Below are positions 17,766 through 23,548 of a DNA stretch of 64,000 nt, piece after piece. The stretch covers positions 79,393-143,392 of the forward strand of contig JAVRCV020000068.1 in the NCBI GenBank assembly GCA_034530615.2, in the 5' to 3' direction. Position 1 is the first letter of the stretch; each line of letters opens with the position of its first letter. The notes beneath the pieces were generated by a model, which saw only the letters and a program-made list of their open reading frames with translations, was not told the origin of the DNA and made no database searches. The DNA comes from Aulosira sp. ZfuVER01 (GTDB lineage: Bacteria > Cyanobacteriota > Cyanobacteriia > Cyanobacteriales > Nostocaceae). The position numbers and the translations under genes were made by a program.

Positions 17766-17975
17766 TCCCGCGTGCAAGTTGGTGGAGCATTGCGTGTTCT
17801 CAGTTACTAGGGGGACTCCGCTGGTGAGTTGTTACACACTCTTTCAAAGATGGCTACTTTTAAGCCCATTTTCCAGGTTCTTCGCACTCCCCGTTCACAC
17901 ACGCCCACTGTATTTGACAGTGTTACTTTTCCTCTCGTACTAGTATGTAGGCTCCAAGAGTTAGGGCACGCAGGA
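17766..17975 (-). ncRNA. Scaffold RNA A: carries sarcin-ricin-loop mimic and 23S H42-44 mimic
   Basis: Terminal stem UCCUGCGUGC/GCACGCGGGA; CCUAAC/AACUU loop; CUAGUACGAGAGGA at 17943-17930; 56-nt GTPase-centre-like segment at 17876-17821. Confidence 0.85.
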
Positions 17976-17979
17976 TATT

Positions 17980-18006
17980 TATATAATACAACATACTACA
18001 AAAAAT
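17980..18006 (-). promoter_or_regulatory. Candidate promoter/operator (TGTAGTAT + TGTATTAT) for RNA A
   Basis: Minus strand reads TTTTGTAGTATGTTGTATTATATAAAT just before RNA A; the same motif occurs at 23809-23857. Confidence 0.45.
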
Positions 18007-18178
18007 AAATACCAGAGATTAAAAGAGATATGTTGCAGTAGTGCGATCACTGCCGCTTCATATACCTACTTCATTTCGCTCATCAATATCAACTCCTTAA
18101 GTTGAGCGATCATCCGAATTAGAAAACATAACTTTATTTATGCTACAACAAGTTACATATGTATTAATGAATTAGGTT

Positions 18179-19546
18179 TTGATGATGTCTGAAAATATAT
18201 ATTTCACAAAAAAAGGTAAATTTAGCCATGAGCTAGCATTGAACGATCTCAAAGAAATCCAAACTTCAGTCCGCTCAATCGCTAGTGAAAAACCTTTGAC
18301 GATGAGTCATACAAATTCAGATGGTGTATCAGAGGTTATTGAATTGACTGAATTGCCTTTAGATATTCTTCTTAACCAGAAGCAAAAACAGGTGGTATCT
18401 AACATAGCTAAGAGTTTTGCAAAAGGGAATAGCTTTGAAGAAAATGTTTCTAGTAATTTTATTTATGAAAAGTTTCTGAAATTACTAGCAAAAGAAAATT
18501 TTTATTTAGCTGATACATTTACTGTTTCTGATTCATTATCTCTTTTTGAAAATTTGAGGGTGATAATTGAGCAAGAAATTTCAACTGTAAAGCTGAATAT
18601 TATTACTGTAATTGGGGCATCTCTTAAGAAAGGCAATATCTGTGAAATTGGCTCAATTAAGTTTATGAATCCGTCGGACTTTATTGACAAGCATAAACTT
18701 TTGTTTGAGAGTCTTGTTAATTATAATGAAGGATTGCAAACTTATCTAGAAGTTTTTCATAAATCTGACTTAGTAGCACAGGTGAGCATTAAAAATAGGG
18801 ATACTGCTACATCTAAAATGGTAACAAATGAAATAATGAAAAGAATCTACACCCTTATTAGATTAACTATCCCAAGTAGTGGGGGACGATATAACTTTTT
18901 TGGGACTCTTGGTGAAGAATATTTAGAATCTAGATTTTCTTTCTTATTTCATACTGATTCAAGCAACGAAGAAATAGTAAAATCTATATCAGTTGAACGC
19001 ACAAGTAATCGGTTTTCAGATAGTAATATAGATTTAATAGAAACTATACTTCCTCATAAACAAGTAAATCAATGGTTTACTCGTATTGAGCTAATCATTA
19101 GTAAATTTGTTAATGATAAAAAATTAACTGATTTTGAAAAAAGGATATGGACAGCCCTTTATTGGTATGGAGAATCTATGTCAGAAAGAGAATTAAATCC
19201 TTTGATAATTAAATATGCTACTTGTCTTGAAGCATTATTTAATAGTCGTGAAGGTGGAATAAGTGAACAAATTTCTGAGTTTACTGCTTATGTGGTTGGT
19301 AAAAACAAAGATGAAAGGATGAAAGTCTACAGTAATATTAAGAAACTATACAGCTTAAGATCTACTGCTGTACACGGAGGCTCTGTTGTAGGACATGTGG
19401 ATAGTAATTTTCTATCTCAGATTATGTTAATATGCGAATCTGCATTGCTTCAAATGGCATATTATTCTCAAGAGGATTACTATCAAAATTCAAAAGGATA
19501 CGAAAAATTTGTGCAATACATTCTTAGAGAATATAGGTTTATTTGA
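18179..19546 (+). CDS. HEPN-domain (ApeA-like) ribonuclease
   Basis: C-terminal CLEALF ... LYSLRSTAVHGG (RxxxxH) motif; AT-rich; antisense to its neighbours. Confidence 0.8.
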   Translation: MMMSENIYFTKKGKFSHELALNDLKEIQTSVRSIASEKPLTMSHTNSDGVSEVIELTELPLDILLNQKQKQVVSNIAKSFAKGNSFEENVSSNFIYEKFLKLLAKENFYLADTFTVSDSLSLFENLRVIIEQEISTVKLNIITVIGASLKKGNICEIGSIKFMNPSDFIDKHKLLFESLVNYNEGLQTYLEVFHKSDLVAQVSIKNRDTATSKMVTNEIMKRIYTLIRLTIPSSGGRYNFFGTLGEEYLESRFSFLFHTDSSNEEIVKSISVERTSNRFSDSNIDLIETILPHKQVNQWFTRIELIISKFVNDKKLTDFEKRIWTALYWYGESMSERELNPLIIKYATCLEALFNSREGGISEQISEFTAYVVGKNKDERMKVYSNIKKLYSLRSTAVHGGSVVGHVDSNFLSQIMLICESALLQMAYYSQEDYYQNSKGYEKFVQYILREYRFI

Positions 19547-19579
19547 ATTTAATTAATCTGATTTAAAGGTATTAGTAAA

Positions 19580-19603
19580 CAGGGATGAGATTTACTCATC
19601 CCT
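19580..19603. terminator. Hairpin between convergent HEPN and TROVE-like genes
   Basis: agggatgag-attta-ctcatccct inverted repeat. Confidence 0.6.
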
Positions 19604-19610
19604 ACTAAAT

Positions 19611-21041
19611 TCAATCATTCCGTACAGGCAACGGCAGATCCATAATCTCCATTAGTAGATCCAGACGAGAAGGGCGCGTTAGGAGTGGAACGAGGTTCGG
19701 TAAGCTGTAGTAGTCACCTGCGAAGGTAAACGTATCTACAGGTGCTTGCTGCTGCTTGAGTTGACTCTCCAGCCAGTTGTAATGAGTACCTACGCGGACA
19801 ATCACTACATTGGGGATTACCGCTAATTCTCGGCAGTAGGTTTTGTAGACTTCACTGAAGTAAGGAGCACCATTCTCGCCTTCATCAGTCACTATGATAA
19901 TTTGGTCAACTACCTGCTTTTTCTTGCGCATTGCTTCCAATGCACAGCCGATACTAGTACCACCACCTGCCCTGATGTGCTGGAAAGCACGCTCCCAGTC
20001 GGTCAACTCTTTGCCCTGTGCGGTGACGGGGTAAGGAATGGTATCGAAGGCGTAGACATACAATTCTGCCTGAGTAATACCAGAGATGAGAGCAGCAAGT
20101 TGCTTACCAACTGCGATCGCATTTTCCATTGAGCCAGATTTGTCTACCAGTAGGGCGGTTGGACGAGCGATCGCACCACGTCTTTTCACCTGCTCGTTAG
20201 TCACTTTTTCTAACTTGGCAACGGTGTCTGCGTCCAAATCTGCGGCGTCTGCGGCAATCTGTGCTTTGAATGCTGCTACACGTCCACTCTTAGATGCTTC
20301 CTCCAGCTTGGAGTCAATCAGCTTTTTGACTTCTGGATGATCCATTGCACCTCTCGCCTGGAGAGACTTGAGGTTATTGATCGTTTCCTGGGGAGTCATG
20401 CTATTAATTAACGCCACCAACACAACGGGTGTAAGTTGCTTGATTGCACCGATCGCGATCGTGTAGGGAATGTTAAACTCCACAATTAGCCGTGCTTGTT
20501 CTGCAGCATTTTCAGCCTTAGCAAGCTGCTTCAGCACATTTGCTAACGAACCCTCTGGTGGAGTATCGCGGAACAAAATCGCATTTGCTCGTTCATTTGG
20601 CTTGATGTGCAGCGAAGCATATAGGTGCTTCATCGCCTTACGACCCCGCAAAGCTGCGCGATCGAATAGAGCCGGATTGCTTTCTCGCGCCTTCAGGTAA
20701 CGCCGTACCGCAGTTCGAGCCGAACGAGGCAGTTTATTTTGTTGCTGCTTCATGAAATCCACCACACGAGCCACCTGATAGGGTGGGAACTCTTGCAGCA
20801 TCACAAATCCAGCATCTCGGTGTTCGGTCAAATTACTGGTGAGCAAGTGAGCCACAAATACTTCCTTGTGGTCGCGAACATCACCATGACGCTGATACCA
20901 AACTGCTAAGTGTCCGTAAAAAAGCGGGTCTAATTCAACAATTAACTTATGAATTTCTGCGACTTGCTCAAGCTTGCGGTGAGGGGTAGTCAGCAAACTG
21001 TTGAGCATTTCCAAACGCAGATCGCGTTCTGCGGTATTCAT
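19611..21041 (-). CDS. Ro60/TROVE-like helical protein with C-terminal vWA domain (476 aa)
   Basis: Start MNTAERD with [25 protein letters not shown] resembles the TROVE N-terminal motif; MIDAS DKSGS, GGGT, TDEGEN. Confidence 0.75.
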
Positions 21042-21103
21042 TATAACCTCCTCTAGTTGTGGTGAATGAGGAGGCAGATGTTGCACGCGGGGCGATAAAT
21101 TCA

Positions 21104-22586: not shown

Positions 22587-22653
22587 AACTTATGTTGTTT
22601 AAAGATAGTCGTACAGATTGAGTGGTTAGGTTACATAAGTTAGCGGACATCAT
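22552..22653 (-). CDS. Putative 33-aa leader peptide overlapping the start of the 239-aa gene
   Basis: GGAGGTG SD, then [33 protein letters not shown]. Confidence 0.45.
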
Positions 22654-22716
22654 TGAATTCACCTCCATATATGCGATTGAGTTAAGGTATAGGATAAATA
22701 CAATTTAAATAATTGG

Positions 22717-22860
22717 AATTCCGCACAAGTTAGCAAAGCAGTTTTCACAATTGCCTTTACCATTTTGGCTACGCTCCCATATAAGGGAGCGACAGGAATC
22801 GAACCTGCATATCCTTTCACAGATAGTGTGTGTATGCTTCACAAGTTAGGGCGCGGAATT
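22717..22860 (-). ncRNA. Scaffold RNA D: circularly permuted tRNA cargo (YrlA-like topology)
   Basis: Order is T arm GCAGG-UUCGAUU-CCUGU, loop-closed acceptor CGCUCCC-UUAUAU-GGGAGCG, UA, D arm GCCAAAAUGGUAAAGGC. Confidence 0.85.
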
Positions 22861-22876
22861 AAATCTTAAATGTTTA

Positions 22877-23055
22877 CCATGCAAGTTCAAGAAGCTTTTT
22901 ACAACTACGGTCGCTCTTACCAAATATTGGCAGTGGGCACGCACGCTAAATCTGCAAGAGACTTAGAAATCATGCTTCGCTGGTTCGATCGCTCGAATTT
23001 TACTACCTTAGGGCCGTTATCAATGTGTATGTATGCTTCTTGTGTTAGGGCACGG
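22877..23055 (-). ncRNA. Scaffold RNA E: permuted 23S rRNA H67-H71 (H69) mimic cargo
   Basis: AUAACGGCCCUAAGGUAGUAAAAUUC at 23020-22995 and GGUAAGAGCGACCGUAGUUGUAA near the 3' side, inside the scaffold arms. Confidence 0.8.
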
Positions 23056-23068
23056 ATGATTAGGCGTA

Positions 23069-23269
23069 TTAACCATAAACAGCTTCAGGCCGAACAATCA
23101 AGTCGCCACTAGGACGGCGATCAACTATGTAAGCAGAAAGGCGATCGCTATTTACATCTAAATGTCGAGCAACCTGCTCCTTCACTGCTAGATCATTCAT
23201 ACCTGCTGCAATTCCTAGTTGTGTTTCTGCCACATCAACAGAACGTCCTTCAAATCGAATATGAATCAT
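23069..23269 (-). CDS. Small ubiquitin-like (beta-grasp) protein, C-terminal Gly
   Basis: 66 aa from MIHIRFEG with GAGGTG SD; beta-beta-alpha-beta pattern ending [10 protein letters not shown]; same locus as ThiF. Confidence 0.65.
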
Positions 23270-23339
23270 TGCTATCACCTCTTTTTAAATTACGAATGGC
23301 TTTCTTAATTTTGAATTTTGAATTTTGAATTGGGATTAG

Positions 23340-23548
23340 TGGATCTGATCGGGATTGAACCGATACCCTCCCTGTGAGAGTTGCACTCACACCTCATGCG
23401 AGTTGAAAAAGCTGTGGTAACACACGCAGGAATCGCACCTGCACTTATCGTTTAAAAAGCGATCGCTCTACTATTGAGCAAGTATGTAAGCTTCTTCTGT
23501 TAGGGCACAAGTGAAATCCGGGATCTCTACCGTTAGAGCTACAGACCC
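23340..23548 (-). ncRNA. tRNA-like shell with its anticodon loop replaced by scaffold RNA F
   Basis: Acceptor GGGUCUG/CAGAUCC-A, D arm GCUC-UAACGGUA-GAGA, T arm AUCGG-UUCAAUC-CCGAU. Confidence 0.75.
23393..23511 (-). ncRNA. Scaffold RNA F: tRNA-Lys(UUU)-like cloverleaf cargo
   Basis: CUUGUGC/GCAUGAG stem, CCUAAC/AACUC; D arm GCUC-AAUAGUA-GAGC; anticodon loop UUUUUAA; T arm GCAGG-UGCGAUU-CCUGC; internal ACCA. Confidence 0.8.

Follow-up and report, generated by a model that had tools for sequence, protein, structure and literature searches.

A probable family of Y-RNA-like RNAs with tRNA- and rRNA-like heads beside a divergent Ro60-like gene of the cyanobacterium Aulosira

Ro60 proteins, Y RNAs and the Aulosira locus

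The purpose of bacterial Ro60 proteins and of their Y RNAs is unsettled. A locus of Aulosira sp. ZfuVER01 bears on this question. Within a stretch of 64,000 nucleotides (contig JAVRCV020000068.1, positions 79,393 to 143,392; here called the window, with positions counted from its first letter), six RNA units built on a common scaffold have been found on the minus strand, all of them at most 3.3 kb from a gene for a divergent Ro60-like protein. Comparative sequence analysis suggests that these units are probably a family of Y-RNA-like noncoding RNAs belonging to this Ro60 paralogue and equipped with a handle of a new kind.

The closest described relatives are the YrlA-type Y RNAs that accompany Rsr/Ro60 (Chen et al. 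2014, PMC4201824; RF02553). According to the part of that paper considered here, they are noncoding RNAs located beside the Ro60 gene, often several per locus, and join a stem taken to bind Ro60 to a tRNA-like head. The same part gives GNCGAAN0-1G as the bacterial Ro-binding motif and GGUCCGA as the vertebrate one, and the heads of the Y RNAs it describes are tRNA-like only. In metazoan and Deinococcus Y RNAs, the two ends of the RNA pair into a bulged stem on which Ro60 sits, and the Y RNA tethers Rsr to PNPase (PMC4201824, same part).

The Aulosira units share the genomic setting and the general plan of YrlA-type RNAs, and one of them, unit D, has a head of permuted order that partly matches RF02553. 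With the metazoan and Deinococcus RNAs, as described there, they have in common the closure by pairing of the ends, a conserved break in the helix close to its base and a variable distal module of the sort that brings in a second protein. They differ from both in the sequence of the internal loop, which reads YC-N-N-A-Y opposite RACUY instead of GNCGAAN0-1G; their distal modules copy tRNA and rRNA elements, where the metazoan and Deinococcus RNAs have a large internal loop. Besides the permuted type, these modules include cloverleaves of normal order, a double tRNA-like form with one nested in the other, and mimics of rRNA. The protein belongs to a branch that the Pfam TROVE model does not recognise, and its apparent partners are a probable ubiquitin-like protein and an E1-like enzyme, not RtcB and RtcA. 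In the literature searched, which did not include Burroughs and Aravind 2016 (NAR 44:8525), neither this scaffold nor any Y RNA head resembling rRNA was found described, and no cassette combining TROVE with a ubiquitin-like protein.

The tRNA-gene arrays (trn operons) of Anabaena and Nostoc are also relevant, as a further copy of the scaffold lies in such an array. In the parts of the two papers considered, the Anabaena counterpart stays silent under standard culture conditions and is switched on by translation inhibitors; it is repressed by TrcR and co-regulated with rtcB (PMC8421152, PMC10272220); three undetected 'pseudogenes' have been reported in it (PMC8421152). In the two papers, no mention was found of Y RNA, Ro60, TROVE, tRNA-like elements or vWA, nor of YrlA in the first paper and L12 in the second.

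The common scaffold and its linkage to the Ro60-like gene

The six units have been designated A to F. Unit A occupies 17770-17971, unit B 21104-21173, unit C 21737-21856, unit D 22721-22856, unit E 22877-23055 and unit F 23394-23510, all on the minus strand, where the arm sequences listed in an earlier, sequence-only reading of this DNA were located for all six. Each unit is read in the same order: stem1, a 5' loop strand of 9 nt, stem2, the element N-UACAYAC, a variable insert and, on the return side, the second half of stem2, two bases, AACUU and the second half of stem1. Stem1 has 6 bp, which in A, C and D can be extended to 9-10 bp, and stem2 has 6 bp with an RGC end next to the N-UACAYAC element. 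The inserts span 25-160 nt. The 5' loop strand starts with CCUAAC, or with CCCGAUC in unit B, and the 3' loop strand is AACUU, or AACUC in unit F. Minimum-free-energy (MFE) folds recovered the frame of stem1, internal loop (9+7 nt) and stem2 in 6/6 units. Unit B, which sits directly upstream of the Ro60-like gene, is the minimal form, with a short hairpin closing the scaffold.

Unit B of the window and 60 minimal units from other genomes, 61 in all, were the basis of a covariance model, R1. Its matches in the window are exactly the six units (E 3e-25 to 8.6e-6), with unit B at 100.1 bits (E 3e-25) and unit A at 35.6 bits (E 3.2e-7). The word GCCCTAAC occurs five times in the window against 1.24 expected, each time inside a unit (5/5), and the composite 5' half motif occurs five times in the 8.03-Mb genome, 5/5 at the Ro60-like locus. 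Scans with the motif and with R1 together give seven scaffold copies in the genome, six at the locus and one in a tRNA array. BLAST of the units against their own genome returned nothing beyond short chance-level words and T-loop matches, and no family of Rfam 15 matches the six-unit scaffold. The scaffold is thus not an ordinary dispersed repeat, an outcome that the sequence-only reading had named as fatal to its proposal of a conserved RNA. A scan of 17400-24400 for promoter and terminator consensus sequences gave no excess (15 against 16.3 expected and 9 against 5.4) and nothing useful on the minus strand.

Covariation was studied in 80 close loci, gathered via the neighbouring Ro60-like protein, and 20 more divergent loci taken from whole genomes. 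Units were chosen by the loop motifs together with one stem, and pairing was scored on the stem left out of the choice, which guards against circularity. Stem1 was paired at 96.2% over 212 distinct scaffolds chosen via stem2 only, and stem2 at 92.8% over 226 chosen via stem1 only, against 15-65% in slid-register controls. The identity of the pairs varies; position 1 of stem1, for example, is C:G in 105 cases, U:A in 57, G:C in 23 and U-G in 12, and position 4 is U:A in 102 and C:G in 97. In alignment A1 (61 sequences), 96.3% of the cells are paired and 12 pairs have changed on both sides, compared with 3.7 +/- 1.1 in shuffles (0/500 reach 12) and 4-8 in slid controls. The proposal that the stems vary while keeping their pairing is therefore well founded, and the strong covariation among homologues leaves the reading as a structured RNA standing.

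The order and type of the units are kept across genera in orthologous loci. In the 80 close loci, 333/334 units lie on the same strand as the adjacent gene, and G-U pairs are common (37, 28 and 35 at three positions of stem1, for instance), so the earlier assignment to the minus strand was right.

The description of the loop as near-invariant was overstated. The CCUAAC strand varies across genomes, and only Y1, C2, A5 and Y6 hold; orthologues carry CCCAAC, CCUGAC, CCGAAC, CCAAAC, CCUCAC, CCUAAU or UCUAAC. The AACUU strand varies much less, the alternatives being AACUC and GACUU. The loop that emerges is asymmetric, with 5' YC-N-N-A-Y-NNN facing 3' NN-RACUY, and across genomes the consensus is YC-N-N-A-Y opposite a nearly fixed RACUY.

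The Ro60-like gene (19611-21041, minus strand) encodes a protein of 476 aa for which a TROVE ring and a vWA domain are indicated by profile searches, an AlphaFold2 (AF2) model and Foldseek. The closest members of its family bear the public names 'vWA domain-containing' or 'hypothetical', without any Ro60 annotation, and the Pfam matches of the protein itself are to vWA models only. A single-sequence search already reached a phage TROVE structure (E 9e-5). With a profile of 46 family members, the matches in the PDB included human Ro60 (9nen, 1.2e-14), phage Ro60 (9l5y, 1.5e-13), Xenopus Ro (1yvp, 1.2e-11) and Deinococcus Rsr (2nvo, 1.5e-7), and 10/46 members matched PF25045 vWA_Ro60. The AF2 model has a predicted local distance difference test score (pLDDT) of 90.8. 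Its best 12 Foldseek matches are all Ro60/TROVE structures (12/12; about 500 columns, template-modelling score 0.61-0.70), followed by vWA domains only. Residues D300, S302, S304, T362 and D386 of the metal-ion-dependent adhesion site (MIDAS) are invariant. On the evidence of profile and model, the gene product is a divergent Ro60, with a predicted HEAT-repeat ring and a C-terminal vWA domain with MIDAS. The family is large, with 1054 clusters at 50% identity (E up to 0.001), and the protein was found in 48/401 sampled cyanobacterial genomes. The locus thus reveals a large family whose closest members go unannotated as Ro60 in their names.

RNA and protein occur together. In a sample of 151 genomes of the order, R1 matched in 58 and the protein was found in 60; both were present in 57, the RNA alone in 1, the protein alone in 3 and neither in 90, counts that overstate independence because the sampled genomes are kin and that describe a pattern rather than independent trials. 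Among the genomes with the protein alone, G413 has a partial protein match (residues 102-476) and G191 has its gene on a contig of 5.4 kb. By hand count, 132 among the 150 R1 matches listed lie within about 8 kb of the gene on the same contig.

More weight than such counts is carried by a phage cassette and by a second TROVE locus. With the single Ro60-like protein as query, a phage contig of 131 kb was reached in IMG/VR, with the cassette at 3127-10741. It encodes homologues of the Ro60-like protein (42% identity), of a 66-aa protein (36%), of a 277-aa protein (27%) and of the E1-like enzyme (42%), and five scaffold units lie upstream of these genes on the same strand. The stems of the phage units have no sequence in common with those of the window. 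Their loops pair UCUGAC, UCAAAC, UCCAAC, UCUAAU or UCUAAC with GACUU, AACUC or AACUU, and RUACAU follows stem2. R1 alone gave E 0.19-0.47 on these units, whose recognition relied on a structural scan and visual inspection.

The second, canonical TROVE gene of the same genome lies on another contig (C15, ~139570-143170) and has three or four tRNA-like RNAs in tandem upstream of it. These carry, in an extended arm at the anticodon position, GACGAAUU, a motif of the GNCGAA type, and R1 found no match at this locus. Each Ro60 paralogue of the genome therefore adjoins its own kind of RNA. Since the loop is linked to a protein of Ro60 fold and is conserved down to 42% protein identity, we infer that it serves as a protein-binding handle.

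The seventh copy lies on contig C32 at 181020-181143 (minus strand at ~9020-9146 of the retrieved locus) and has a YrlA-like head (R1 29.8 bits). It is placed between tRNA-Glu and tRNA-Trp of an array of 28 tRNA genes. Genes of the HNH and 2H-phosphoesterase types flank the array, a CCA-adding-type gene follows about 5 kb past the HNH gene, and there is no Ro60-like gene at less than 10 kb from the unit. The adjacent HNH gene recalls the Anabaena array, as far as the latter is described in the parts considered, and the difference is that most units occur at the Ro60-like locus and not in the array. Of 12 unlinked copies fetched from other genomes, seven sit in arrays of at least six tRNA genes. 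The locus would in this way tie Ro60 to the stress-induced tRNA arrays of cyanobacteria.

Heads resembling tRNA and rRNA

The modules mounted on the scaffold are of several types. A tRNA-like module is present in C, D and F, and absent from A, B and E. The head of unit C matches the tRNA family of Rfam (RF00005) with 48.6 bits and is read by ARAGORN as tRNA-Leu UAA (21760-21834); that of unit F gives 51.1 bits and is read as tRNA-Lys UUU (23415-23488). Both are cloverleaves in which, according to the MFE folds, the acceptor is embedded in stem2 and stem1, leaving no free ends. In alignments of 27 and 53 orthologues, the anticodon columns of C and F are among the most variable (1.1-1.6 bits), while U33, the stems and the T-loop are constant. 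Unit F orthologues mostly carry CUA or other triplets, and ARAGORN assigned 28 different labels among 81 units. As the anticodon columns vary freely, C and F are not decoding tRNAs, and the idea that they are specific mimics of tRNA-Leu(UAA) and tRNA-Lys(UUU) was rejected because the triplets vary among orthologues.

The head of unit D is of the permuted, YrlA type, with a T-arm, a closed acceptor-like hairpin and a D-arm in this order (MFE fold). It matches RF02553 with 23.1 bits at 22753-22809, the best result of any unit and below the gathering score of 69, which no unit passes. The Y_RNA family of Rfam gave no match in the units at E up to 10.

Unit F is itself enclosed in an outer tRNA-like shell (23339-23548, minus strand), with an acceptor GGGUCUG/CAGAUCC containing G3:U70, a D-arm and a T-arm. 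In the pairing as read by eye, unit F takes the position of the anticodon arm, which is also the position of the Ro-binding stem in the RNAs of the second TROVE locus. The two halves of the shell are conserved in 45/45 listed flank pairs (55 distinct pairs from 59 F units). The MFE fold of 23325-23700 did not reproduce it, so that conservation is what speaks for the shell. Upstream of unit F follows a mini tmRNA-like element of 84 nt (23609-23692, minus strand), a tRNA-like domain with an acceptor of the G3:U70 type that lacks both the scaffold and an mRNA part. It reaches 43.8 bits with the tmRNA model of Rfam, whose gathering score is 47, and is kept in 55/80 close and 1/20 far loci, always on the same strand. 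The genuine tmRNA of the genome is encoded on another contig, C37.

Two further heads resemble 23S rRNA. As the Aulosira assembly contains no assembled rRNA, the 23S rRNA of a relative (L003) was used as reference. In unit A, UAGUACGAGAGGA (17930-17942, minus strand) is identical at 13/13 positions to the core of the sarcin-ricin loop of the relative's 23S rRNA, and AGUACGAGAGG is unchanged in 53/53 unit A copies. A second region of the same head (17821-17889, minus strand) aligns by blastn with 23S rRNA over 70 nt (73% identity, E 2.2e-8). This part corresponds to helices H42-H44, which form the L11/L10 stalk base and the GTPase-associated centre, where factors bind. The profile of unit A matches 23S rRNA with E 4.1e-13, and the unit A copy of the reference relative matches positions 1093-1148 of the large-subunit (LSU) model (51.7 bits, E 6.4e-14). 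In alignment A3, which holds 53 unit A orthologues at 93% column identity, 51 pairs are predicted and 9 of them show changes on both sides; RNAalifold returned a three-way junction with covarying hairpins like H43 and H44.

Unit E has a multi-hairpin head, in which 26 nt (22995-23020, minus strand) are 88% identical to domain IV of 23S rRNA (E 1.2e-4; E 1.7e-5 with the unit E profile). The family would thus combine its own RNA handle with a modular mounting of mimics, one reproducing the ribosome's GTPase centre and another part of domain IV of 23S rRNA. The heads suggest partners that can be tested, including L11, L10/L12, elongation factors, thiopeptides and ribotoxins.

In unit B, the loop of the closing hairpin has 7 nt and reads CUG followed by variable bases in orthologues. 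To see in it an imitation of an anticodon stem-loop is speculation only.

Ribosomal-protein leaders are short RNAs that copy the shape of the rRNA site of a ribosomal protein. Unit A likewise copies an rRNA site. It differs from these leaders in that its mimic is mounted on a Y-RNA-like frame, joins two sites distant in sequence (the sarcin-ricin loop and H42-44) and is not placed as a leader, and no leader family of Rfam matches it.

Gene partners, proposed role and alternatives

Several genes of the minus strand accompany the Ro60-like gene with different constancy. The most constant one encodes the 66-aa protein (23069-23269; 76/80 close and 18/20 far loci), followed by the 277-aa protein (16861-17694; 72/80 and 7/20), the ThiF/E1-like adenylating enzyme (16217-16867; 69/80 and 8/20; PF00899, 1.7e-27) and a protein of 239 aa (21867-22586; 67/80 and 4/20). 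The 66-aa protein ends in RPEAVYG in 19/19 sequences, with an invariant final G, and its AF2 model has the order beta-beta-alpha-beta-beta (pLDDT 89). Foldseek found nothing for it at E up to 0.001, and its list of weak matches is mostly ubiquitin-like. The model and these matches suggest that it is probably a ubiquitin-like partner with a beta-grasp-like fold. Among the PADLOC models, the E1-like enzyme matches the E1 part of E1-E2 proteins of the cyclic-oligonucleotide-based antiphage signalling system (CBASS) type (3.8e-17), and no other cassette protein matched in PADLOC. The 277-aa protein has no match in Pfam, NCBIfam, PADLOC, PDB or Atlas, and the 239-aa protein likewise belongs to no known family, its look-alikes in Atlas being hypothetical proteins of phages only. 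A connection of Ro60 to a ubiquitin-like/E1 pair is thereby suggested.

A paralogue of ribosomal protein L7/L12 is encoded at 21302-21694 (minus strand, probable ATG at 21682; TIGR00855, 105.4 bits with a cut-off of 84.4) and is found, as an accessory member of the locus, in 28/80 close and 2/20 far loci; the housekeeping copy lies on contig C48. Downstream, at 8973-14153 (minus strand), genes for MoxR AAA+, DUF58, transglutaminase and pentapeptide-repeat proteins follow one another; they were dropped as possible partners and are regarded as a separate neighbour, since the four genes searched occur in 0-3/80 close loci.

The mechanism that we favour can be outlined as follows. Once transcribed and possibly processed, each RNA would close through its 5' and 3' ends by stem1 (6-10 bp), continue into the internal loop and then into the 6-bp stem2 and N-UACAY. 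This common frame would be the handle gripped by the ring-shaped Ro60-like protein, much as Ro60 grips the bulged stem of Y RNAs. The distal end would be an exchangeable head and imitate an RNA used in translation, with the form of a tRNA cloverleaf in C and F, of a permuted YrlA-type module in D, of the sarcin-ricin loop with the L11/L10 stalk base in A, of a domain IV stretch in E and of a bare hairpin in B. Most likely, the heads would recruit to the Ro60-like protein those factors by which such RNAs are recognised. These factors could be enzymes of processing, repair or modification, ribosomal stalk proteins, GTPases, or agents that attack them. The small ubiquitin-like protein, the E1-like enzyme and the 277-aa protein would act as conserved partners of the Ro60-like protein. 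As a scaffold, the handle could also serve to display RNA modules.

Several observations weigh against this account. Neither the window protein nor any of the 46 family members matches the Pfam TROVE model PF05731 (E up to 0.01). The sequence-only reading rightly set the loop apart from the canonical Ro site: as judged by eye, with no pattern search made, neither GNCGAAN0-1G, as given in the part of the published description considered, nor GGUCCGA is seen in the scaffold of the six units, and CCCGAUC of unit B comes nearest. Eighteen among the 150 R1 matches listed sit away from the gene, and in genome G033, of which 1577 bases were unavailable, a copy was found in a tRNA array and the protein was not detected; the kinship of the sampled genomes has been mentioned above. 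The rRNA likeness of unit E spans about 30 nt, with no explained likeness for the remainder of its head. The L7/L12 paralogue does not track unit A, which is present in 10/23 full-length loci with the paralogue and in 24/35 without it, so that its role as a companion of unit A is unsupported. The true binder of the loop could also be the 66-aa, the 277-aa or the 239-aa protein.

With the same ribonucleoprotein (RNP), the heads could act as sentinels or decoys, a possibility that we regard as doubtful and still as the best of the alternatives. They would be bait for ribotoxic nucleases, glycosidases and ribosome-binding antibiotics, and the imitated sites would be tRNA, the tmRNA end, the sarcin-ricin loop, the thiostrepton/L11 site and domain IV. 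Damage to the bait, or its occupation, would be read by the ring and vWA domain of the Ro60-like protein and signalled to the ubiquitin-like/E1 module, which sets this proposal apart from plain tethering for RNA quality control. The imitated rRNA sites are known targets of toxins and antibiotics. The unchanged sarcin-ricin core (53/53), the occurrence of the cassette in a phage as well as in hosts, the likeness of the E1-like enzyme to the E1 part of CBASS-type proteins and the copy in a stress-induced tRNA array all point the same way. The proposal derives purely from likeness, however, and searches of the cassette with Pfam, NCBIfam and PADLOC brought out no gene for a toxin, for a nuclease or for immunity, the families of the last matching the E1-like enzyme only. 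The drift of the anticodon triplets argues against the mimicry of a substrate for any specific anticodon nuclease.

The boldest version of this thought, which we offer tentatively, is a Ro60-type RNP that rebuilds the factor-binding centre of the ribosome in miniature on one handle, from the sarcin-ricin loop, the L11/L10 stalk base and sometimes an L7/L12 of its own, with other heads supplying tRNA and the tmRNA end. Its baits might report or absorb attacks on translation and signal to a ubiquitin-like conjugation module, in a cassette common to cyanobacteria and their phages.

The frame might instead be a processing or stability cassette, for example a double-strand nuclease site or a protective clamp, by which the heads are released or shielded, and the Ro60-like gene might adjoin it for another reason, or its product might bind the heads and not the frame. 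Stem1 is often 9-10 bp long, some copies lie within tRNA operons, whose transcripts are normally processed, and one genome has the RNA with no protein detected. A mere processing helix, on the other hand, would not hold the loop and UACAY constant while the stems turn over, down to a phage at 42% identity, and 132 among the 150 listed copies lie within about 8 kb of the gene. This alternative is considered unlikely.

Much less probable still is that unit A is an autoregulatory ribosomal-protein site, comparable to the L10 and L11 leaders, that controls the L7/L12 paralogue. Such a role would fit its imitation of the L10/L11 binding domain of 23S rRNA and the presence of the paralogue in the locus; yet the unit lies about 3.3 kb downstream of the paralogue, past the Ro60-like gene, the paralogue occurs in only 23/58 full-length loci and in no relation to A, the frame is common to five units without rRNA likeness to this site, and the Rfam leader families offer no match. 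Functionless decay of tRNA genes, or a mobile repeat that derives from tRNA and has inverted ends, might account for three tRNA-like heads, for unconstrained anticodons and for a copy in a tRNA array, whose Anabaena counterpart holds three undetected 'pseudogenes' (PMC8421152, part considered), but is largely refuted already, and the least credible of all, in view of compensatory changes that hold both stems at 93-96% paired, frequent strand-specific G-U pairs, a unit order and type conserved across genera, a total of 7 genome copies and heads in A and E that are rRNA-like rather than tRNA-like.

Between unit A and the Ro60-like gene, an AT-rich open reading frame of 455 aa is present on the plus strand (18179-19546). 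It matches no family, is found in 1/80 relatives and looks like a recent insertion.

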